Shown piece after piece: positions 1,173 through 14,357 of a DNA stretch of 16,150 nucleotides. The notes under the pieces are model-generated. The model was not told the DNA's origin. It ran no database searches and was given only the letters and a program-made list of their open reading frames with translations. The position numbers and the translations under genes are program-made. Source of the DNA: a virus; the UHGV virus genome UHGV-0095173. One strand, written 5' to 3'. Every line of letters begins with the position of its first letter. Position 1 is the first letter of the stretch.

Positions 1173-1348
1173 GCTGCCACCTCCTGAATACGAGTAATAC
1201 GAACGTGCTTATAACCGCCTTTATTCGCCAGTAGTTGCGCAGTCGATTTAGCTGTTTCTGGACTGGTGCTAGTCATGGTGTAGTGAATGCCGACGGTGTT
1301 ACCGCGCTTGTTAACAGCGTATCCGTCGATCTGGAAGGTTTTACGCAT
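1169..1348 (-). CDS. hypothetical small protein (59 aa)
   Basis: Not in the ORF track. Hand translation: MRKTFQIDGYAVNKRGNTVGIHYTMTSTSPETAKSTAQLLANKGGYKHVRITRIQEVAA. ATG at 1348-1346 lies just downstream of the recombinase-like stop (1341-1343); its stop overlaps the next start (ATGA). Confidence 0.45.
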   Translation of the reverse strand: MRKTFQIDGYAVNKRGNTVGIHYTMTSTSPETAKSTAQLLANKGGYKHVRITRIQEVAA

Positions 1349-2219
1349 TTCCGACCTCCATTGCTAAACGGGACTGGATAGCTGCCGCTTTACTGCCTAA
1401 TTGCAGGTAAGTACGAGTTATCGCAGGGTTGCTATGACCCAGCATTTCAGAGGCCACTAATAGGCCCTGTTCGCCACCTGCGGACATGAGGTTAAAGGCG
1501 GCTATTTTGCGGCTTGAGTAGGCGCTCAGGCGCAATTTAGCGTTAATGAAACGGGTAAACCACGCCATGACGCCATGAAGTTTGCGCCAGATGGTTTGGC
1601 GAGTAACGCTACCTTCCAGACGTTGACAACGGTTACTTTCGATTTGAGAGCGGGAAAATACCAGGTCGTCCTCCACCAGATTCCGATCCTGACGGTCACG
1701 CAGCCGCTTGATAATGCCGGGGGGTAACTGTTTGGTGTCGTGCTTGACGTCAGCCTTAGCCACCAGCCCGAACACAATCGCCTGTTCTTCGTCGTTCATA
1801 TCGGCGGCCAGTTCATCACAGCCGATACTATCCCACTTCATGTAGGCGATATGGTCAGCGGCGAGCCGCGCGGCGTCCTTGCGCTGCTGGCGCACAATTT
1901 CAATACCTTTGCGGGTTGCCCGCGCTTCTGCGGCTTTGGTCTGTTTGGAAACGATAATTGTCGCCTGTCCAGTTTCCCAATTGATGCAGGAATAGCGCAG
2001 GTTGCAAACGTCGCTGGTACGCCAGCCGGTTACGGTCGCAATATCCCACCAGAGCAACACCCAATCGGGCTGTGTCTGCTGGATGCGCTCGCGTAGCTTG
2101 CGCTGCTCGTCACGGTCATAGACAGGGGTCATGGTGCGACTGCCCTTTGTGCTCGCCGCTTTAACGACATTGCCGCGCAGCTCGCGGGCTTTGGCTGTCA
2201 GAGTCTGGAGGTTAAACAT
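1341..2219 (-). CDS. tyrosine recombinase-fold protein (phage integrase family, catalytic domain, about 292 aa)
   Basis: C-terminal LGHSNPAITRTYL matches the tyrosine-recombinase box II signature (His and catalytic Tyr). Box I-like TGWRTSDVCNLRY. The usual HxxR appears as SSRK. Start placed at ATG 2219 (MFNLQ...) because GGAGGTG sits 4 nt upstream; the track's longer ORF begins at a TTG at 2312. Confidence 0.65.
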   Translation of the reverse strand: MFNLQTLTAKARELRGNVVKAASTKGSRTMTPVYDRDEQRKLRERIQQTQPDWVLLWWDIATVTGWRTSDVCNLRYSCINWETGQATIIVSKQTKAAEARATRKGIEIVRQQRKDAARLAADHIAYMKWDSIGCDELAADMNDEEQAIVFGLVAKADVKHDTKQLPPGIIKRLRDRQDRNLVEDDLVFSRSQIESNRCQRLEGSVTRQTIWRKLHGVMAWFTRFINAKLRLSAYSSRKIAAFNLMSAGGEQGLLVASEMLGHSNPAITRTYLQLGSKAAAIQSRLAMEVGNA

Positions 2220-2400
2220 GACGCACCTCCGGCACTGGCAGACGTGCGGCCAGAGACAAAATAAAGTGCGGCGCAAGGATGCGGCGGGCTTCGCGTTCGG
2301 TCGCAGCCTCAACGGACAGACGGCAAGGTTTGGCTTTTTTATCGTGGCGATTCAGCGCGAGAAAGCGCCAGGTGAATTTTGAGTGTGCGGATCTAGCCAT
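2212..2400 (-). CDS. hypothetical small protein (62 aa), first gene of the operon
   Basis: ORF track entry. AGGAG about 9 nt upstream of ATG 2400. Its stop overlaps the recombinase-like start (ATGTTTAA). Function unknown. Confidence 0.45.
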   Translation of the reverse strand: MARSAHSKFTWRFLALNRHDKKAKPCRLSVEAATEREARRILAPHFILSLAARLPVPEVRHV

Positions 2401-2720
2401 TTTTAGCGGCTCCTAGAACATATTGAAGGAGTCTCGCCAGATGCTGCTAAACATGGGTGGCGAGACGTGACGGGGTTAGCAGACTGGCGTTCTAGGAAAC
2501 CAGCAGGCGTTAAGCCTCCCCACCACGCCCCGCCATAAATCGGGGGTATGGTTGGTTTTCGGGCGTAAAAATACCGCTATACGGAAATCAGCGGCTACCC
2601 GCTAGAACGTTCAGGCTGCTAAACCCGGCACCCGTTTTGTGAGGTGCAAAATAATCATAACCACACTACCCCGTTAAGCGCAAGGGAAATATCCCCTGCG
2701 CCCACAATGCAAACTTGTGA

Positions 2721-3791
2721 TTAGTACCCGCGAGAAGCGTAAACTCGTGCCATGCCAGCCCAATGAGAGAAAAGAATTTCCCACTTAATTGGGTTGTAGG
2801 TAATACTTCCATCGACTGCGGCAGCATTCCATGCCCGATCAGAAATAGAGCTATCTTTAGCAGTTTTCCCCCATTCAACAATATCCCTTGCTAAAGCCTG
2901 TACACATGCTCGACTGACTACCTTTTCGTCAACGTACGCCCCAACATCAGAGCATGACTCCATACTCATGTTCAGGCTATTTTTAAGGGACTCCAGCCCG
3001 GCCACTGACATAAAGCGACGACCATTAGCGTATGCAACACCGTCATTCCTGATAGTGAACTTAACAGTGTGGAATGCGTCAACAATCATCCGCTGCTCTG
3101 GCGTCGGGTTCTGCCATAGCACAAGGTTAATCTCTCTCTCAGAAGCTATTGATTCTGCTTTCTCACGCTTAACTCGTGCATCCCGTTCTGCCTGGTATTG
3201 TTTTTGATTTTCATCATGAGCCTTTTGGTAACTAGAGGCTAATGCGTCTCTGTTTTTGGCAAATGCTGCAATGCTATTTTTGAAATCGCTTCTGCTAACC
3301 TTGTTTAACCCCATACTCCAGCGGTCATTTTCGTAATCATCATAAATGGCATCAACTTTTGCCGGATTACTCAGCACAGTCGCCAGATTAACCGGAATTT
3401 TAGCCATCTCGTCACTGATTCTCGCTACATGTTCGAAAGTCGATATAGAGCCAACTTCATGACTCCCATACTCATGATAAGCGGCATAAAAAATTGGAAT
3501 AGATTGAGGTTTTTCGTTCACTGACTTAATGATGCTTTTTTCATCACATGACTGTTCACCCCATTTGAAAACACTTTTCCCACCATTTTTGTATGTGTTG
3601 CAATCATCAATACCCAAACGAACCAGCGCATCCCATCCGGGCCGTTTCTTGTAATCCTCGCTCTTGACAACATGCATTGTGGTTAGGGCTTTCGCAGGAT
3701 CTAACTTGCCAGCGGTACAAGACACGATAGGAAAGGCCAGAGAAGCGCAGGCTGCTATCCTGAAAAGGCTCGTCAATCTTTCTTTTTTCAT
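2721..3791 (-). CDS. predicted lipoprotein (356 aa), cargo gene of unknown function
   Basis: N-terminus MKKERLTSLFRIAACASLAFPIVSC has a basic n-region, hydrophobic core and lipobox-like IVSC followed by T. Central charged, coiled-coil-like stretch (YQKAHDENQKQYQAERDARVKREKAES). Looks AT-richer than flanking phage genes by eye. No family recognised. Confidence 0.7.
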   Translation of the reverse strand: MKKERLTSLFRIAACASLAFPIVSCTAGKLDPAKALTTMHVVKSEDYKKRPGWDALVRLGIDDCNTYKNGGKSVFKWGEQSCDEKSIIKSVNEKPQSIPIFYAAYHEYGSHEVGSISTFEHVARISDEMAKIPVNLATVLSNPAKVDAIYDDYENDRWSMGLNKVSRSDFKNSIAAFAKNRDALASSYQKAHDENQKQYQAERDARVKREKAESIASEREINLVLWQNPTPEQRMIVDAFHTVKFTIRNDGVAYANGRRFMSVAGLESLKNSLNMSMESCSDVGAYVDEKVVSRACVQALARDIVEWGKTAKDSSISDRAWNAAAVDGSITYNPIKWEILFSHWAGMARVYASRGY

Positions 3792-3843
3792 CGTCCTAAT
3801 GCTCTTTCAAACCAAGAATGTAGGACATAGTAAATTGTGGTTA

Positions 3844-4170
3844 ATGGCAAGTCGATATAAAGGCCGGGTTATTGGCTTCGGTGCCAATATCATTTCTCCG
3901 AAATTTCATAACGCCTGTAATCGCTCGTTTCCCCATCTTGGGGACATTTCAAAACTGCGAATCAAAGTGCGAATGGAACTGCGAATTCGCAAAGAGAGAG
4001 CGCCGCTCAAAGCAGGCCGGATAAGGCTTCGCGGACATATTGCGAATGCGAATCCACCAGAAACGAAACGCGAATCACCCATAAACAAAACCGATACGCA
4101 GGGAGCGTACTGCCCGTATTCAATCGGCCGAAAAGTCAGCCGATTAAAATCATGCCCGGCTATCCCCTGA
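3844..4170 (+). pseudogene. terS-like relic: diverged inverted copy of the 5' part of the prophage small-terminase gene (possibly an intact 108-codon ORF)
   Basis: An 18-mer caccagaaacgaaacgcg at 4055-4072 is identical to the reverse complement of terS 11811-11828. TGCGAAT repeats at 3956-4075 mirror those at 11904-11958. The frame from ATG 3844 gives MASRYKGRVIGFGANIISPKFHNACNRSFPHLGDISKLRIK..., resembling TerS MAKPDWGELQQRFLSEHAKTGISPKEWCEAQGLNYSTAKRYIKIA. The repeat block is read in a different frame from terS and I found no convincing RBS. Confidence 0.3.
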
Positions 4171-4630
4171 AATTTCAGGAGATCGAGAGCCACCAGCAGA
4201 GAACCGTTCATGCCATCGGTAACTTGCAGCCCGAAGCTCAAATCTGAGCGTTGACCGCCAGCCAGAAGAAACCATTTTAAATCCCGCGCCTTCTCTTTGG
4301 ATGAACAGGGTTACTCCCCGTAATGCTGTGAACTGCCACGATGATTCGGGGTTGTGTTGCGCTGGCCTTTGAGTCCCGCACAAACACTGACCCACAAAAT
4401 TTTTGTAGGTGACTGGCCCTCTTGATGAGGTGCTGTTTTGCGTAACCCTTAATGAGTTGTGCAAAGGCTCAACCCTTTAAAAGGGTTGCCTAACCACCGG
4501 CGATAGTAATAACCGCCAACCTATGAACACTATGAACACCTTTGAGCATTTTTCTATAAACATTCCACTACTGCCCTATTTGATGCCTTTCTCTGGCTGG
4601 CCTGTGTAAGTTACCGTTGCTGGGAACTGA

Positions 4631-4668
4631 CAATAAAAAAGGCTTGCCCCTCTCAGGTAACAAGCCTT
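4631..4668 (-). terminator. intrinsic terminator downstream of alpA
   Basis: Minus strand: 8-bp stem AAGGCTTG / CAAGCCTT with a 14-nt loop followed by TTTTTATTG, about 20 nt past the alpA stop. Confidence 0.5.
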
Positions 4669-4685
4669 GTCTATCGCTCTGGATC

Positions 4686-4898
4686 TCACTCACTACAGAT
4701 TCCGCGCTTTTGGCTCTGTCTTCCGATCCACGCCTCCACCTCATCGCGATACCAGCAATTGCGGCCGCCAACTTTGAAGGGCATCGGAAAGCCGTTCCCC
4801 TCATCCTTCAGAAATTCATAGAACGCAGAATCAGAACGGTAGCGTAGACGGGCTTTAACTTCGACTTTGAGCAAAATATCACTGTTAGATATGGACAT
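4686..4898 (-). CDS. alpA: AlpA-family transcriptional regulator / excisionase-like protein (70 aa)
   Basis: GFPMPFKVGGRNCWYRDEVEAWI matches the AlpA signature (FP-P-K-GGR-W-EVE-WI). GAGG RBS 5 nt upstream of ATG 4898. Sits next to a P4-type integrase. Confidence 0.85.
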   Translation of the reverse strand: MSISNSDILLKVEVKARLRYRSDSAFYEFLKDEGNGFPMPFKVGGRNCWYRDEVEAWIGRQSQKRGICSE

Positions 4899-4973: not shown

Positions 4974-4999
4974 TAAAAAAAGCTGGCTTAAAGCCAGCT
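4974..4999 (-). terminator. intrinsic terminator downstream of int
   Basis: Perfect inverted repeat AGCTGGCTT / AAGCCAGCT (4981-4999) followed on the minus strand by a run of 7 T, about 40 nt past the int stop. Confidence 0.6.
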
Positions 5000-5040: not shown

Positions 5041-6270
5041 TTACACAACCAGCCTCAAGCCCTTATCGCCGCTGGTCTCCAGTATTTCGCCACACTCTGC
5101 GGCCTCGATAAAGTCCCCCCACCATTGCATTAAAACCCGGCGTTTTTCCAGATAGTCGCTACGGTTATAAACATTTCGAATCGCATCGGCGCTTTTGTGA
5201 GCGAGTGCAGCCTCAATCACATCAGGGTTGAACCCCTCGTCATTTAAAACTGTAGATGCCAACGCCCTGAACCCATGAGGAACAATCAGCCCTTTAAACG
5301 ACGTTTTGTGTATCCCGGCCTGAGTCGCACAGCGTGAGATCGGCTTATTTTCTTTTCGCCATGAGGGGAAAACATAATCGCAGCGCTTCCACTTTTCGGC
5401 CTCTTTAAGCACGTTTATAGCCTGGCTCGATAATGGGACTACGTGGGGGCGCTTTCCTTTCATCCGGCTTGCAGGGATTTGCCAGATTGAGTTATCAAAA
5501 TCAATCTCATTCCAGAGAGCGCCGCCAGCCTCCGAAGGCCGGACCATCGTAATGATCTGGAATAATAATGCCAGCTTTGATGGCTCCCATAAGCTCAACT
5601 CGTTCCATGCGCTTAAAAATTCGGGCAACCGCTCTTTCTGTAAAGTCGCTCTTGGCTCGTTTTTTTCAGCCGGGAATGCTTTACCAATTTTCGATAGCGG
5701 GTTGTGCTCAATAACCCCAATGTTTACCGCATAATCCATTATGGCGTTGATGGTAATAACCATTTTCGTAAGCGTTGATGGCCTTTCCCTGAAAGGTTTA
5801 AAAGCCTGAATAGTATCGGCTGCGTTTATTTTATGTACCGTGGTATGCCTAAAAATCGTGGAAAGATGCTTCAACGTCACATTGTGCGATTCAAGCGTGT
5901 TGCTTCTCGCACCTTCTTTAATCTTGATTTTTAGCCATTCATCGGCAACGGCCTGAAATGACTGCGCGTACATTTTACGCTGTTCATTCCTGGCATCTTT
6001 TTTGACTTCGTTCGGATCTATCCCTCGCGCTACCATACGGCGCAGTTTCGAACGTTCCTCCCTCGCTTCGGACAAAGTAAACTCCGGGTATCGTCCAATA
6101 GTATAGGTTTGTCTCTTCTTCGTTACCGGGTGTACATACCGAAAACGCCATGACTTACCGCCCCGGCTTGTGATGTAAAGCAACAAACCGAAACCATCGT
6201 GCAAACTGAAATCCTTGCCCTGTGCCTTCGCGCTTTTCACTTCGACGCTAGTTAGTGGCCTAACAATCAT
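5041..6270 (-). CDS. int: tyrosine-type site-specific integrase, P4-like (409 aa)
   Basis: N-terminal arm-binding-type domain (GKSWRFRYVHPVTKKRQTYTIGRYPEFTLSEAREE). C-terminal catalytic region with HGFRALAST and downstream Tyr (RNVYNRSDY). GAGG RBS 7 nt upstream of ATG 6270. Confidence 0.95.
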   Translation of the reverse strand: MIVRPLTSVEVKSAKAQGKDFSLHDGFGLLLYITSRGGKSWRFRYVHPVTKKRQTYTIGRYPEFTLSEAREERSKLRRMVARGIDPNEVKKDARNEQRKMYAQSFQAVADEWLKIKIKEGARSNTLESHNVTLKHLSTIFRHTTVHKINAADTIQAFKPFRERPSTLTKMVITINAIMDYAVNIGVIEHNPLSKIGKAFPAEKNEPRATLQKERLPEFLSAWNELSLWEPSKLALLFQIITMVRPSEAGGALWNEIDFDNSIWQIPASRMKGKRPHVVPLSSQAINVLKEAEKWKRCDYVFPSWRKENKPISRCATQAGIHKTSFKGLIVPHGFRALASTVLNDEGFNPDVIEAALAHKSADAIRNVYNRSDYLEKRRVLMQWWGDFIEAAECGEILETSGDKGLRLVV

Positions 6271-6484
6271 TCAACACCTCTCTGGCTACCATGTAATGCA
6301 AACGGCGCATGATTCTCTTTCTAGTCCCTCATGTACCGAATCAAAGCGAAATCCGGCGAATAAATCCGCACATGTTCGGAGTGTCATTTTTATGGTTCAG
6401 GCCAGTAACGCCGTATGATTCCGAACGATAACGCACTGATTAATAGATATTAGTTGCATAAGGTACAGATATGCAGTCATTGGA

Positions 6485-7705
6485 TTATCCTTTGCGGTTA
6501 GACCAGAAGTCGGCGTTTTGTTTGTTCAGGGAAGCGATGCTGGTCATGCCCATATTTGGACGTTGTGCATCGCCCGTGGTGCTGCGGGTGTTTCGCCCTT
6601 TGGCAATCTCTGACACGGCGTTAAACGCCATATCTACCGATTGCTTGGGCAATTTGCGGATATCCGCATCACCGACAACCTGGCGAACCAGTGTTTTGTC
6701 AGCGGCAGCCAGCACATCACGTTTGAACGCGGTCGGTTTCACCTTACGGCTCAGATCGATACCCGGGACGATAACTTCGGCACGATAAGCAGCGTCACCA
6801 GTAATCGTGGTTTCTTCTTCATCGTCCTCGCCGTCACCGGTCGGATTATCGTCAGGATTATTGTCGTTATCGCCCGTCGCAGTTCCTTCGAGCTTAGCCA
6901 GCAGGGCTTTGAGCAAGGTTTTGATATCGTCCTCGCCGTCGCCGGTTGGCTCTCCGCCCATTTCCGGCTTTTTGTCCGGCAATGGTTGCTGCGGTGAAAG
7001 GTTAATGTTGAGGTTAACGCCGCTCGGCAGATCCCCTTCGTCACCCGTTACCGCCGCTGGCGCAGAGTCCAGCAGTTCGTTCATGGTGTCAGCGTCACCC
7101 GTTTTGATGGCCGTGCGCATGCGGGTCCACCAGCTTTTCTTTTGATTTGCCATTGTGTCTCTGTCTCCAATTGCACAACGATTTCCGGCTCTGCCTTTGG
7201 GGACAAGAGCCACATGGTTTCCGGTAATATCGACCTGCTCGGCTTTACCTGGCTCGGTCTGCTCGTACTCCGCGTCATAGCCGCACGACACTTCACGCAG
7301 GCCATCTTCGATAAGCTGAATGGCGTTTTCGTCTTTGACGATAAGGTCAGCCAGCATCAAATCAGACTGATCACCAGTCCCGCGCCGAACGTTCTGAAGA
7401 TGCCCGACCGCAAGCTCTTTCCAGTTCTCGGGGTTGACCAGCCGCACATTCCCGTTTTCATCTTCAGGATGCAGGATCGTGATGCTCATCCCTTCGAATG
7501 AGGCGAGCGTGGCCGGATGGAATACCTGCTCAGGAGAACGCGTGACGACTATTTCACCGAACTTATCGGGTTTCAGTTTTGGCAGGTCATCAGCACCATA
7601 GAGCTGCTTACCCGTTCGACCTATCGGCACGTCTTTGCACAGCAGCGAGCCGTCAGCCAGCTGATAGCGGGTTTCCCCCAGCCGGGTGTAGAAGAAATAT
7701 TTCAT
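6485..7705 (-). CDS. phage head scaffold/protease-like protein (DUF2213-like, 406 aa)
   Basis: Follows portal and head-morphogenesis genes. Motif GNHVALVPKGRAG. Acidic, low-complexity C-terminal half with two PTGDGEDD copies. Start overlaps the upstream stop (ATGA). DUF2213 assignment is from memory. Confidence 0.75.
   Translation of the reverse strand: MKYFFYTRLGETRYQLADGSLLCKDVPIGRTGKQLYGADDLPKLKPDKFGEIVVTRSPEQVFHPATLASFEGMSITILHPEDENGNVRLVNPENWKELAVGHLQNVRRGTGDQSDLMLADLIVKDENAIQLIEDGLREVSCGYDAEYEQTEPGKAEQVDITGNHVALVPKGRAGNRCAIGDRDTMANQKKSWWTRMRTAIKTGDADTMNELLDSAPAAVTGDEGDLPSGVNLNINLSPQQPLPDKKPEMGGEPTGDGEDDIKTLLKALLAKLEGTATGDNDNNPDDNPTGDGEDDEEETTITGDAAYRAEVIVPGIDLSRKVKPTAFKRDVLAAADKTLVRQVVGDADIRKLPKQSVDMAFNAVSEIAKGRNTRSTTGDAQRPNMGMTSIASLNKQNADFWSNRKG
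6806..7051 (-). repeat. in-frame acidic repeat region inside the scaffold-like gene
   Basis: Near-identical 22-bp direct repeats at about 6821-6843 and 6927-6949 (atcgtcctcgccgtc[a/g]ccggt[c/t]gg), encoding PTGDGEDD twice amid a Gly/Asp/Asn-rich stretch. Confidence 0.6.
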
Positions 7706-7902
7706 CCATCCGCCGCCTTAGTGGATTTAATAAACTCACGCAGCAGATGCTTTATCTGACGCGCATTACCACGACCTATAAGTTGGCAGCGCTTTGCTCT
7801 ATCACCAACAGATTGATAAATAGCCTCTACGCCATTGTATTTAGCAGTGATGCGCGTAGCTTCGCTGGCCTGTTCTTTCAGGAAATAGATTGTTTTTTCC
7901 AT
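7702..7902 (-). CDS. hypothetical small protein (66 aa) between head-morphogenesis and scaffold genes
   Basis: ORF track entry. AGGT about 6 nt upstream of ATG 7902. Its stop overlaps the scaffold start (ATGA). Basic C-terminus (KRCQLIGRGNARQIKHLLREFIK). Confidence 0.5.
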   Translation of the reverse strand: MEKTIYFLKEQASEATRITAKYNGVEAIYQSVGDRAKRCQLIGRGNARQIKHLLREFIKSTKAADG

Positions 7903-7916
7903 GGGTTACCTGCAAT

Positions 7917-8690
7917 TCAGGCGAGATAGGGATGAGGTGTCGGGAATACGATTTCTTTGTAGCAACGGCAGTTAGGTAACTCCCCGGCGTGACCGGTCAT
8001 GCCGTCAAGCGTTGGAGGTCGGCCCCATTCGACAAACTTCCCTTCCATCTCTCGATGAGAATGCCGGACGTCGCCATCTTCGGCTGTACGCCAGATATAA
8101 CCATTCGAGCCGATTGACAGCGCACGCGCCTGATCCAGTGCACCGGTTGCGCGCCCAAGCTCAGTCCGGGCGATAAGGTTCGCTCGTGAGCGTGACACGT
8201 CACCGGAAGCAGCTATCTCTTTCGCGAATGGCTCAGCGCGGCCACCAGTCACAACAGCCTCGATGGCTTTGTTCTGAATGTCATACACCCGATCGGCAGC
8301 CTCAAGAGGCAGCGATTTGATGTACTTAATTTGCTCGGCGACGATGGATTTCATCACCTGGCCTACCGGGGCGCGGTCAACCATGTTGCGCAGCTCTGAG
8401 CTGATGTTCCGGCTGTGCTGACGCCACTGCTTTTCATTCTGGCGCGCTATGTCTGCGGTGAAGTTCTCAGCTACCTTAGTCGCCCAGGGAGTGATGATTT
8501 CGCTGTAGCGCTCCAGCGCATCCATTATTTCGGTGACACTATCGTTTGAACCATCGTAGCGACCATTTACGATATCCCCGACCGCCCGCGCTATCTGCCG
8601 TAGACTCGTTCGATATCGGATCTCCGCCTGGCGGCTCTGGCGGTTTGTCGCCAAGTTCGCCGATGCCTGGCGGCGCTTCGTCTTCGGCAT
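7917..8690 (-). CDS. phage head morphogenesis protein (Mu gpF / SPP1 gp7 family-like, 257 aa)
   Basis: Position directly after the portal gene and overall sequence character. GAGGA 8 nt upstream of ATG 8690. Overlaps the portal 3' end by about 150 bp in another frame, so the true start may be internal. Confidence 0.8.
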   Translation of the reverse strand: MPKTKRRQASANLATNRQSRQAEIRYRTSLRQIARAVGDIVNGRYDGSNDSVTEIMDALERYSEIITPWATKVAENFTADIARQNEKQWRQHSRNISSELRNMVDRAPVGQVMKSIVAEQIKYIKSLPLEAADRVYDIQNKAIEAVVTGGRAEPFAKEIAASGDVSRSRANLIARTELGRATGALDQARALSIGSNGYIWRTAEDGDVRHSHREMEGKFVEWGRPPTLDGMTGHAGELPNCRCYKEIVFPTPHPYLA

Positions 8691-10008: not shown

Positions 10009-11450
10009 CAGGCCTGTCTCCCTAGCAGCTCCCAAATATCCATTGTTGTATCGGTCGGCGCGAACGCCATTATGAAAGCGTCGGCAATGTTAGGTGAGGG
10101 GATATCGCGCTTAGCCAAATCTTTCTTGCTTTCAACCATAACCCTACCGTTACGATCAAAGTCTCGGTGCGGGGTCGTCAGCTCAAGCTTTAGTTTCTCC
10201 AGGTGCGGGCACGATGAATCGATACTTATCAACTCATCAACAGGATATTCCTCTCCATTTTTCACCGCGTTGAACGTATTACGAAAGCGATCAGCTACCA
10301 GCCACCATGCCTGGGCTTTCAGATTGGCAAAGAAGTCTTTATTCGGAATGCCGTTATATTCAGAATCTGGCTCGTTCACACCAGCGCCAGCATTGAAGCG
10401 TTGATAATTAACTGGTCGTGAATAAGGATTTTCACGTCGTCTGTCTTCGTTAATTTCCGAGAATTTAGCACCAGCAGAAGCGCCAACACCAATGGAGTCA
10501 TAAACGATATCAGCACTTCTCTCTGTGGCTGCCTGATATGCCCGCTGGCAGCTTTTAAGAAGCTCGTCTTCTTTTGCCTTCCATTCATCAGCCCAATACA
10601 CAACGGAGCCATGACGATAAACATTGGAGCACTTATCCGCACCGCTATCGGCAACGTCGAAGCCTATTCGCTTTCGTCCGTTTGGCTCAAAACCAAGCAC
10701 CTTATGGGCATCTATTGCAGCCTCAATCCACGAAAGTTTAATAATTGCCGCGTCATCATCAGATTCGGGAACCCCCATATAAACGTGGTCAAACCCCTCC
10801 GGATCACGACGCTTTGCAGCCGAGATAACCTTAAGCATGGTGTCTGAGAGGAATGGGTTTTCGTCGTAATTGATTTTTCGCACCAACGTATCTTCTGGTG
10901 GATCAACAACGAAATTACGCCATACAAAGTCAGTCACCAGACCAGGGTTAAAAATAAACCAGCATTCAGATCCGCTTTTACGAATGGTTGGTTCCAGTAT
11001 CTTCCACTGGTATTCCGTTAGTGCATGGGCTTCTTCAAGCCACAAAACGCTGATACCTTCCAGGGATTTAATTTCTTCGATATTGCGCCATAAACCGTAA
11101 AACACGAATTCTGAGCCAGTGACCCGGTTGATAATTTTATTATTCAGAATTCGGAAGCGATGCCGCAGCCCAAACCGTTCAATCTGTATTTTGAGCAGGG
11201 TATAAACCGACTCTTCGATTTTGTTCTGAATTTTACGTGCGCAACAGAAACGCAGGTTGTATTTATTTGCCAGAAAGACAGCAAACCCAGCAGCATCCCA
11301 TGACTTTGACGATGAGCGCCCACCAAAAAGTACTTTATTTCGAGCCTGTGTCGTCCAGAAGTTCCTTAGAGCCGGATTCAGGGTCGGTTTGGATGTCAGA
11401 GTAGAAGTCATTAAGGTCACGATCTCCATTACCGTCATCAACGCCAGCAT
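10008..11450 (-). CDS. terminase large subunit
   Basis: Long ORF directly after terS. N-terminal ATPase-type region (KVLFGGRSSSKSWDAAGFAV is Walker A-like; LWLEEAH is Walker B-like). Start uncertain: the track ORF opens with GTG at 11453, first ATG is 11450, and other candidates are 11438, 11429 and 11411; all overlap the terS 3' end. Confidence 0.9.
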   Translation of the reverse strand: MLALMTVMEIVTLMTSTLTSKPTLNPALRNFWTTQARNKVLFGGRSSSKSWDAAGFAVFLANKYNLRFCCARKIQNKIEESVYTLLKIQIERFGLRHRFRILNNKIINRVTGSEFVFYGLWRNIEEIKSLEGISVLWLEEAHALTEYQWKILEPTIRKSGSECWFIFNPGLVTDFVWRNFVVDPPEDTLVRKINYDENPFLSDTMLKVISAAKRRDPEGFDHVYMGVPESDDDAAIIKLSWIEAAIDAHKVLGFEPNGRKRIGFDVADSGADKCSNVYRHGSVVYWADEWKAKEDELLKSCQRAYQAATERSADIVYDSIGVGASAGAKFSEINEDRRRENPYSRPVNYQRFNAGAGVNEPDSEYNGIPNKDFFANLKAQAWWLVADRFRNTFNAVKNGEEYPVDELISIDSSCPHLEKLKLELTTPHRDFDRNGRVMVESKKDLAKRDIPSPNIADAFIMAFAPTDTTMDIWELLGRQA

Positions 11451-12090
11451 CACGACGAAGGCGATCCGCTTCCAGAGACACTTTGTCAGTGGAGGCGAGC
11501 CGATGCTCTATAGATGCCTTTGTGAATTCCAGCGACTCAATGCGGGCCGTGTTACGGTGCATGGCTTTTTGCGCAGATGAAATTAGCTCGTGAAGATTAT
11601 TGGCGGTATCGCCATCAGCTATTTCAAGCTCAGTCTGCCAGCGGCCAATATTTTCAGCAGCGGTAAGGTTCGCCGCACGCAACCAGAAAAGCTCATCATC
11701 AAGAGTGAGCGCCTGAGCATCCTCGGTAATGGCATCAGATAGAAGCATTCGGCGTCCATAGCCACCATGCTTCAATGCGTTCTGATTTCCGGGTCTGGAA
11801 TTATAATGAGCGCGTTTCGTTTCTGGTGAGTTTGATGGTTTTGCGACTTCGCAGTTATCCACTAAGCCCGCTGGTGGCTTACTCTTTGCCACTTTCTCCT
11901 TTTGCGAATTCGCAGTTTTATTCGCACTTTTCTTTTGCGAATTCGCACTACCATTCGCAATTTTGATATAGCGCTTTGCAGTCGAGTAATTCAGTCCCTG
12001 CGCTTCGCACCATTCTTTGGGGGAAATGCCGGTTTTGGCATGTTCGGACAGGAACCGTTGCTGAAGCTCGCCCCAGTCCGGCTTTGCCAT
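11335..12090 (-). CDS. terminase small subunit (251 aa)
   Basis: N-terminal HTH-like domain; motif RPGNQNALKHGGY typical of Gram-negative phage TerS; immediately upstream of terL. AGAGGAAA RBS. Contains the ANSQK-encoding GCGAATTCGC repeat cluster. Confidence 0.85.
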   Translation of the reverse strand: MAKPDWGELQQRFLSEHAKTGISPKEWCEAQGLNYSTAKRYIKIANGSANSQKKSANKTANSQKEKVAKSKPPAGLVDNCEVAKPSNSPETKRAHYNSRPGNQNALKHGGYGRRMLLSDAITEDAQALTLDDELFWLRAANLTAAENIGRWQTELEIADGDTANNLHELISSAQKAMHRNTARIESLEFTKASIEHRLASTDKVSLEADRLRRDAGVDDGNGDRDLNDFYSDIQTDPESGSKELLDDTGSK

Positions 12091-14107: not shown

Positions 14108-14357
14108 TGCGCCGATCCTCCCGTTCTTTCCAGCGGAAATACCAGTTCACTGCACAGGTGATTACCGTGCATGCGATACCGACAATAATTGCCCAGTCGC
14201 TCAGGCTTAACCCTGCAATTCTGTCGGCCAACATCCAGGACACCTCTTTTGCTGTTTTTGCTGTTTCGGCATATGCCTTCGCTGATACACCGCAGCCGGT
14301 CAGCGTGGTGCCTGTTCCATATGAAAGTCTGCTGTAAATGGTGCTCATTCTGGTCAT
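14079..14357 (-). CDS. class II holin, pinholin-like (phage 21 S-like, 92 aa)
   Basis: Two predicted TM segments, the first Gly/Ser/Thr-rich. C-terminus NWYFRWKEREDRR resembles the S21 tail. MTRM dual-start motif. GGAGGTG RBS. Overlaps the endolysin start. Confidence 0.75.
   Translation of the reverse strand: MTRMSTIYSRLSYGTGTTLTGCGVSAKAYAETAKTAKEVSWMLADRIAGLSLSDWAIIVGIACTVITCAVNWYFRWKEREDRRNGYVSKAEE

Follow-up and report, generated by a model that had tools for sequence, protein, structure and literature searches.

The non-coding stretch between the relic of a terS-like gene and alpA in the virus genome UHGV-0095173 is best read as a mosaic of the leftovers of a P4-type replication origin (ori) unit and of a terminator-like hairpin module, both probably relics; we put the probability of this reading at roughly 60%. 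As a patchwork of leftovers the stretch would be mostly ordinary and not a new control element, and, as judged from the sequence, the region is neither coding nor the origin of the island in which it lies. The window is the whole stretch of 16,150 nucleotides that was analysed. The observations that carry the reading are the homology and architecture of the repeats, a deletion within them, the primase types of the islands, the strand bias of pairing in the module and the natural replacement of the region in a sister island.

The island and its relatives

Positions 1 to ~6400 of the window are a satellite island, a helper-embedded PICI (HE-PICI; a known phage satellite class) behind a prophage head gene; its parts include int, alpA, a C4 immunity RNA and a TOPRIM/DUF927 primase. 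The features that frame the stretch are the following.

1341-2312, minus strand: second tyrosine recombinase
2453-2540, minus strand: C4-family immunity RNA (75 bits in Rfam)
2721-3791, minus strand: 356-aa ORF with no match in Pfam or PHROGs
4633-4674, minus strand: intrinsic terminator of alpA, AAGGCTTG ... CAAGCCTT followed by TTTTTTATT; the right-hand limit of the non-coding stretch
4686-4898, minus strand: AlpA-like gene
5041-6270, minus strand: int
6485 onward: late operon of the prophage, with DUF2213 head protein, head morphogenesis protein, portal, terminase, lysis genes and Q

The int and alpA genes lie at one end, the genes are co-oriented, an immunity RNA zone and a primase zone are present, and the insertion is within the late operon of a prophage. 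By these features the island is a member of the HE-PICI class, with putative excision and helper dependence. The same island is found behind the same head gene in Escherichia coli ABWA45 (L001) and ECONIH5 (L002). [quoted passage not shown] The terminator of alpA that bounds it is kept in L012, L019 and L020.

Upstream of the C4 RNA, the nearest gene is the 356-aa ORF, which sits where P4 has the Bro-network gene eta; its counterpart in L012 is 67% identical and is followed there by isrK and C4. An isrK (seqA-like) RNA upstream of C4 reaches the gathering threshold in L012 (2882-2958) and L020 (3356-3437), and none was detected at 2541-2720 of the window. The island directly follows the DUF2213 head gene of the prophage (junction at ~6271-6484). 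In a comparison that took in L001, L002, L012, L080, L082 and L087, islands with integrases only 56% identical follow, in other prophages, DUF2213 genes of only 52-56% identity; the HE-PICI paper (PMC10111431) makes no mention of this site in its main text.

Repeats and chance levels

The first-pass annotation had described a perfect palindrome, a tandem repeat and a GC bracket in the stretch, and the first two are there as described. The palindrome at 4470-4488 is CAACCCTTTAAAAGGGTTG (9+1+9), and the 9-bp unit TATGAACAC occurs twice, at 4522-4530 and 4531-4539; both were read in the sequence and recovered in a repeat search. The GGCG...CGCC bracket amounts to no more than four base pairs (4499-4502 with 4514-4517) closing a loop of 11 nt, and it is neither significant nor conserved, since relatives have AGCG there. 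The local ORFs, which had been judged implausible, are indeed not genes: an 80-bp insertion, an 85-bp deletion and mosaic breakpoints seen among the relatives leave no frame intact, and neither Pfam nor PHROGs returned anything for the local ORFs.

Chance levels were taken from 300 dinucleotide-preserving shuffles of the window. At least one perfect palindrome with 9-bp arms and a spacer of up to 3 occurs in 21% of the shuffles, so the palindrome by itself is unremarkable; the window has two, the other being the int terminator at 4981-4999. A perfect 9-bp tandem occurs in 3% of the shuffles, and on statistics alone the tandem only is unusual. A second perfect 9-bp tandem repeat (TTTTGCTGT twice) lies at 14247-14266, in the lysis region of the prophage. 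The comparative alignment with related islands that had been proposed as a check found both the palindrome and the tandem repeat to be conserved in related elements, and it is by this conservation that they are real.

A truncated P4-type ori unit

The right-hand part of the stretch contains three elements.

4489-4521, no strand assigned: linker GCCTAACCACCRGCGATAGYAAYAACCGCCAACC, common only to islands with an adjacent ori unit; spans the GGCG/CGCC bracket, whose stem is not conserved
4522-4539, minus strand: two surviving iterons, GTGTTCATA twice; remnant of a P4-type ori unit
4540-4565, no strand assigned: flank of the ori unit, homologous to the interval between the pri stop codon and the first iteron in L043-type PICIs

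Read on the opposite strand, the repeat TATGAACAC becomes GTGTTCATA, which is a variant form of TGTTCACC, the type-1 iteron of P4. The layout of P4 was taken from the annotated RefSeq record of the phage, in which the type-1 repeats of ori (CTGTTCACC) are arranged as two direct copies, 35 bp of AT-rich sequence, one inverted copy and three direct copies, reading in the direction of the neighbouring orf88/vis, the alpA homologue; crr lies directly 3' of alpha. P4 is said, also in the annotation of the record, to need both ori and crr, with alpha binding to both.

Sister islands have a complete ori unit at the same position: two iterons, ~37 bp of AT-rich sequence, one inverted iteron and three iterons. 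The full unit (~108 bp) reads GGTGTTCAT-n-GTGTTCAT, the AT-rich tract, inverted ATGAACACC, 9 bp, GGTATTCATA, GGTATTCATA and GTGTTCATA, and its carriers are eight IMG/VR loci (L012, L019, L020, L042, L069, L071, L080 and L087) with alpA genes 88-91% identical. The window (identical here with L016), ABWA45 and L015 have lost 85 bp of it between the 14-bp direct repeats ATGAACACTATGAA; the junction lies inside that repeat, four iterons and the AT-rich spacer are gone, and the outermost iteron on each side remains. Apart from this deletion the window is collinear with L019 and L020, which places the remnant and its flank as homologues of the complete units. The metagenome locus L117 carries the module variant of L015. 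A P4-type array has at least five or six iterons with a TGTTCA core on both sides of an AT-rich unwinding tract; the window has two direct copies only and has lost the tract with the deletion. The suggestion in the first-pass annotation that the region could hold iterons or an origin holds for the kind of repeat, a variant of the P4 alpha type, and probably fails for a working origin, four of six iterons and the spacer having been deleted.

Units of this kind also stand at the primase gene. L043-type PICIs, which have a 587-aa primase, carry two of them in inverted orientation immediately 3' of pri, and the B unit of L020 with its flank is 78% identical to the L043 ori unit over 134 bp. In the L003-type PICI origin the position 3' of pri is taken by GTGTTCACC repeats.

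L020 (oriented) has two separated and mutually inverted P4-ori-like units, at 1762-1867 and 11001-11105, and has no array directly 3' of pri. Paired units are also seen in L080 and in the contig pairs L012/L066, L019/L074, L031/L069, L040/L071, L042/L078, L053/L087 and L079/L082. In these sister islands one unit stands beside alpA and the other upstream of a terS-like gene; the two are 76% identical with the positions of the iterons kept, and they resemble the ori/crr pair of P4.

Other roles for the array were considered. Its three direct repeats and one inverted repeat could have served as an FRT-like site for the second tyrosine recombinase (1341-2312), an idea rejected on two grounds: P4 ori has this very layout, and ECONIH5 has the recombinase and lacks any motif of the kind. 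A further idea, that the array contains a promoter dependent on an activator, was dropped after sigma-70 scans, which gave no consensus site either in this region of the window or in the complete L020 unit.

It is quite unlikely that the TATGAACAC repeats are unrelated to replication and are sites at which AlpA, a Vis/Cox-like excisionase/activator, acts on the promoter of the next operon. They are direct repeats with a 9-11 bp spacing right after alpA, the AlpA protein is 88-100% identical in every island that carries them, and AlpA is the activator of the GN-PICIs (PMC6092414). However, inverted pairs of units lie 3' of pri in loci in which alpA is distant (46% identical in L073) or was not detected in the fetched locus, the motif is missing near the int end of the island and the full unit has no consensus promoter; moreover, the layout copies the annotated type-1 repeats of P4 ori and not the neighbouring type-2 repeats.

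Primase types and the probable origin of the lineage

The primase of L020 has 780 aa, of which residues 676-772 match the origin-binding domain of P4 alpha (PDB entry 1KA8; E = 1.5e-17) as well as Pfam Pox_D5. All islands with a full unit and a visible primase C-terminus have this alpha-type C-terminus, at 96-99% identity. The L020 protein is chimeric, with an N-terminal TOPRIM part like that in the primase of the window lineage (54% identity) and a helicase/C-terminal part that shares 87% identity with the 587-aa primases (the genes compared are L020, oriented, 6043-8385; L001 1784-4564; L043 5166-6929). This suggests that modules have been swapped within the replication gene of these islands.

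The lineage of the window has a 926-aa primase of the TOPRIM/DUF927 type, as encoded in L016, a locus in exact agreement with the window here (99.6% identity over 797 aa). No Pox_D5 domain was found in the primase of L001 or L016, and tblastn with the origin-binding domain gave no match in the window, L016 or L001. Beyond the limits of the window, L001 has an array at 1460-1765, directly 3' of its TOPRIM/DUF927 primase gene, in which at least 13 GTTGGTTCA iterons of either orientation are grouped around AT-rich tracts. Experimentally defined PICI origins lie 3' of pri (Fillol-Salom 2018; PMC6092414), a rule that the GTTGGTTCA array fits, and this array is probably the true origin of the island lineage of the window. 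The repeats at 4522-4539 lie 3' of alpA and not immediately 3' of pri-rep, where the origin of a GN-PICI would stand.

As noted above for L073, iterons occur 3' of pri irrespective of a close alpA; the iterons evidently track the C-terminus of the primase and not alpA, although the link between primase type and ori unit comes down to essentially one replacement, as the window, L001, L015 and L016 are one lineage. From this pattern we infer that the protein partner of the iterons is the primase with the alpha-type C-terminus, and that the window lineage has swapped its replication module, leaving the old origin unit to decay.

That the region is still the working origin of the island, or a crr-like region required in cis for replication, appears most improbable. 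The iterons are of the P4 type, P4 itself reportedly needs two separated iteron clusters in ori and crr, and the sister islands have a full unit at this place with a second, inverted one several kilobases away. In the window, however, only two of six iterons are left around a deleted AT-rich spacer, no protein with the alpha origin-binding domain was found in the window, L016 or L001, a complete iteron/AT-rich array of another repeat lies 3' of the primase of the island, and the island of ECONIH5 does without the whole stretch.

The hairpin module

The palindrome is not part of an origin; it belongs to a conserved, terminator-like module of four hairpins on the plus strand.

4305-4329, plus strand: H1, ACAGGGTTAC / GTAATGCTGT with loop TCCCC; first hairpin of the module
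4336-4415, no strand assigned: 80-bp insertion inside the module, separating H1 from H2, with flanking short direct repeats GTGAACTG / GTGACTG
4411-4440, plus strand: H2, a modest stem followed by TGTTTTG; terminator-like
4436-4466, plus strand: H3, 11-bp stem TTTTGCGTAAC / GTTGTGCAAAG with three or four G.U pairs on the plus strand only
4470-4488, no strand assigned: H4, the 19-bp perfect palindrome; apparent duplicate of H2

The module is ~110 nt in size, or ~190 nt in the window with the 80-bp insertion, which itself contains two imperfect hairpins. The insertion is specific to the window, L012, L014, L015, L019 and L080 and is absent from L020 and from all L003-type modules. We found the module in 47 loci as 24 sequence variants, in hosts that include E. 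coli, Citrobacter and Enterobacter, with one copy in the induced satellite vB_KppS-Ant (L098). That satellite is the one match in the phage and plasmid collections, with none in plasmids, and a single scan of genome contigs gave two loci only. The module is absent from the sister islands L002, L042, L069 and L071.

In most islands the module begins at the stop codon of a small plus-strand ribbon-helix-helix (RHH) gene that diverges from the C4/icd operon; the window has no plus-strand gene upstream of it. The RHH genes that abut the module are mutually unrelated and the module itself is highly conserved, far better than the backbones of the islands (int is only ~26% identical). A plain terminator is not obviously in need of such conservation, so the module may have a further function. 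An 82-aa ORF across the module in L003 was rejected, as it meets a stop after two codons in the window and L004, and a 324-aa CDS over the module in LR881103 was judged spurious, running antisense through the RHH and icd genes. In the deposited record of vB_KppS-Ant (L098 2933-3907; LR881103.1) this CDS, a 'hypothetical protein' that crosses the RHH gene, the module and icd, is probably a mis-annotation.

H2 and H4 have the marks of terminators in the relatives. The T-run TGTTTTG after H2 is kept in 16/16 folded variants, with a fold energy of -10.3 kcal/mol in the window and up to -17.8 kcal/mol in L018. In L003-type PICIs the H4 stem is followed by TTGGTTATCTT, again terminator-like, and H4 has the look of a second copy of H2, tail included. 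Both hairpins are flagged as plus-strand terminator-like in vB_KppS-Ant, which has five such sites, all on the plus strand, against 0.7 expected. In the window a mosaic breakpoint comes right after the H4 stem; there is no U-tract on either strand, and the terminator scan gives no flag. H4 is weak or broken in L012, L018 and L019, and H2 is weak in L003- and L004-type modules.

Pairing is biased towards the plus strand, with an RNAalifold consensus energy of -30.8 kcal/mol against -16.2 kcal/mol for the minus strand. Within H1 and H3, G.U is seen on the plus strand at seven pair positions and A.C at none; the G.U positions of H1 are, in the alignment, pairs 2-26, 7-21 and 10-18, with G.U on the plus strand only. 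H3 comprises pairs 53-83 to 63-73 and folds much worse on the minus strand; three variable positions in it alternate between G.U and Watson-Crick pairs, the sequences having been gathered by patterns that fix part of H3 and so hide variation in that arm. RNAalifold favours pairing of H2 with H4 over two local hairpins, so the fold listed here is provisional. Relative to the common form CCTCTTAAAGAGG, the H4 of the window is altered in both arms in such a way that the symmetry is kept and extended, which argues for selection on a hairpin and not on a fixed protein site; this comparison was made on the listed sequences, as MAFFT aligned the palindrome variants by sequence and not by centre.

These data bear on two alternatives. 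In the first, the module including the palindrome would work as a structured RNA, namely a small RNA (independent or derived from a 3'-UTR) or an RNA element of the immunity zone that regulates in cis. It is a discrete element, highly conserved across islands with unrelated flanks, its pairing is biased to the plus strand with changes from G.U to Watson-Crick, both-arm changes keep the H4 stem, and it lies outside all known Rfam families: searches of Rfam 15 at the gathering threshold and at E-value cut-offs gave no family for the region, the C4 RNA at 2453-2540 alone passes the gathering threshold, and the best match in 3780-4720 is Qrr with 20.6 bits against a gathering score of 50. On the other hand, islands without the RHH gene have no evident promoter upstream, and folded alone, 4296-4640 has no exceptional stability (plus strand z = -0.7, not significant; minus strand z = -1.9, marginal). 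Diversity is also low, which leaves covariation thin (double changes in 2/34 pairs), and the module tolerates the 80-bp insertion and is missing from the four sister islands named above. We consider a functional RNA doubtful, and likewise hold with little confidence its more specific form, that H1-H4 are an undescribed plus-strand RNA of enterobacterial PICIs that is more than a terminator, for example a small RNA or a processing/stability element tied to the immunity switch. If the latter were true, the copy in the window, palindrome included, would still be functional; a small RNA is the sole rival that would make the region interesting.

In the second alternative, H2 and H4, as CCTCTTAAAGAGG-type palindromes ~51 bp apart, would together with H3 be operators for a dimeric DNA-binding protein. 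vB_KppS-Ant has two near-identical palindromes about five helical turns apart around an inverted repeat, and some islands have another H3-like inverted repeat ~300 bp off. The adjacent RHH and alpA/HTH genes, however, vary among islands in which the module is constant, H2 and H4 of the window have diverged from each other with each stem kept, and every mismatch of H1 and H3 is G.T on one strand, a pattern that a site in duplex DNA would not favour. We regard operators as highly unlikely.

Replacement of the stretch and the terS relic

ECONIH5 carries the same element (int 98.8%, recombinase 97.5% and 356-aa ORF 93.8% identical), and a TumE-family toxin-antitoxin cassette (L002 4447-5300) replaces the whole stretch between the terS relic and alpA; this interval of the ECONIH5 island has no iterons and no hairpin module. 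By this swap the interval from the conserved CCATCGGTAACTT motif (4216-4228 in the window) to the alpA terminator behaves as a hotspot for cargo.

The terS-like relic reported on the left of the stretch is real, and it shares repeats with the terS-like gene of the helper.

3956-4075, plus strand: frameshifted relic of the 5' part of terS, with six TGCGAAT repeats like those of the helper terS; outside the non-coding stretch
11335-12090, minus strand: helper terS-like gene (251 aa), with a TGCGAAT cluster at 11903-11959 in its 5' region

The window has 13 copies of TGCGAAT where 3.8 would be expected, and they form two clusters (3956-4075 in the relic and 11903-11959 in the helper terS); relic and helper terS both have the block TGCGAAT-n5-TGCGAATTCGCAAA and CACCAGAAACGAAACGCG. 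The relic looks like a candidate mimic of a pac site, copied from the helper; a copied pac site would allow the terminase of the helper to package the satellite.

Interpretation

Under the preferred reading, 4522-4565 would be the remains of a P4-type origin unit from an earlier replicon of the lineage. The swap would have come first, with the TOPRIM/DUF927 primase and the GTTGGTTCA origin taking over, and decay would have followed. The remnant most likely no longer fires as an origin, and its two iterons might still bind an alpha-type initiator from a co-resident satellite. In other PICIs H2 and H4 would act as tandem Rho-independent terminators after the small rightward RHH genes; the module in the window may at most be a hairpin barrier to stray plus-strand transcription into alpA and int.

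With its repeats read as relics, in place of a concealed origin or control switch, the region should carry no ori annotation. For the window, the outcome is mainly a cleaner annotation; the comparative by-products are of modest value to those who work on satellites. Some HE-PICIs appear to have an origin split in the manner of P4, its two units standing beside alpA and several kilobases off; the primases of these islands are chimeras of exchangeable primase and helicase/origin-binding modules; and a replicon swap can apparently leave a decaying origin behind. These suggest a sequence rule for predicting the initiator of an island: the type of iteron should match the C-terminus of the primase.

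Comparison with known systems

The module resembles the Rho-independent terminators and conserved mosaic-joint linkers of lambdoid elements in that H2 and H4 of the relatives have GC-rich stems and T-rich plus-strand tails, and in forming the conserved right-hand joint of swapped RHH gene cassettes. It differs in that H4 of the window has neither a U-tract nor an upstream plus-strand gene, and in a conservation beyond the needs of a terminator.

The island corresponds to the HE-PICIs as set out in the main text of PMC10111431 in its place in a prophage late operon and in the order of int and alpA followed by the next zones, and the stretch lies in the 'dynamic/Bro' zone, described there as variable and as holding the C4/isrK immunity RNAs. 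That main text makes no mention of a hairpin module or an ori-like unit beside alpA.

To the GN-PICI origin (PMC6092414) the likeness is in the two inverted units after pri in L043-type islands and in the GTTGGTTCA array after the primase in the window lineage. The repeats in the window differ in standing next to alpA instead of 3' of pri, and in being truncated.

P4 ori is the closest parallel to the iterons. The window differs from it in having two iterons, no AT-rich tract and a primase without the C-terminal domain of alpha; the iteron of the island, a putative binding site, ends in TA where that of P4 ends in CC. The iterons nevertheless share the TGTTCA core, and the full unit of the sister islands has the layout of P4 ori, in the same orientation relative to transcription and adjoining the alpA/vis gene. 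The sister islands also encode an origin-binding domain of the 1KA8 type and carry a second, separated unit comparable to crr.
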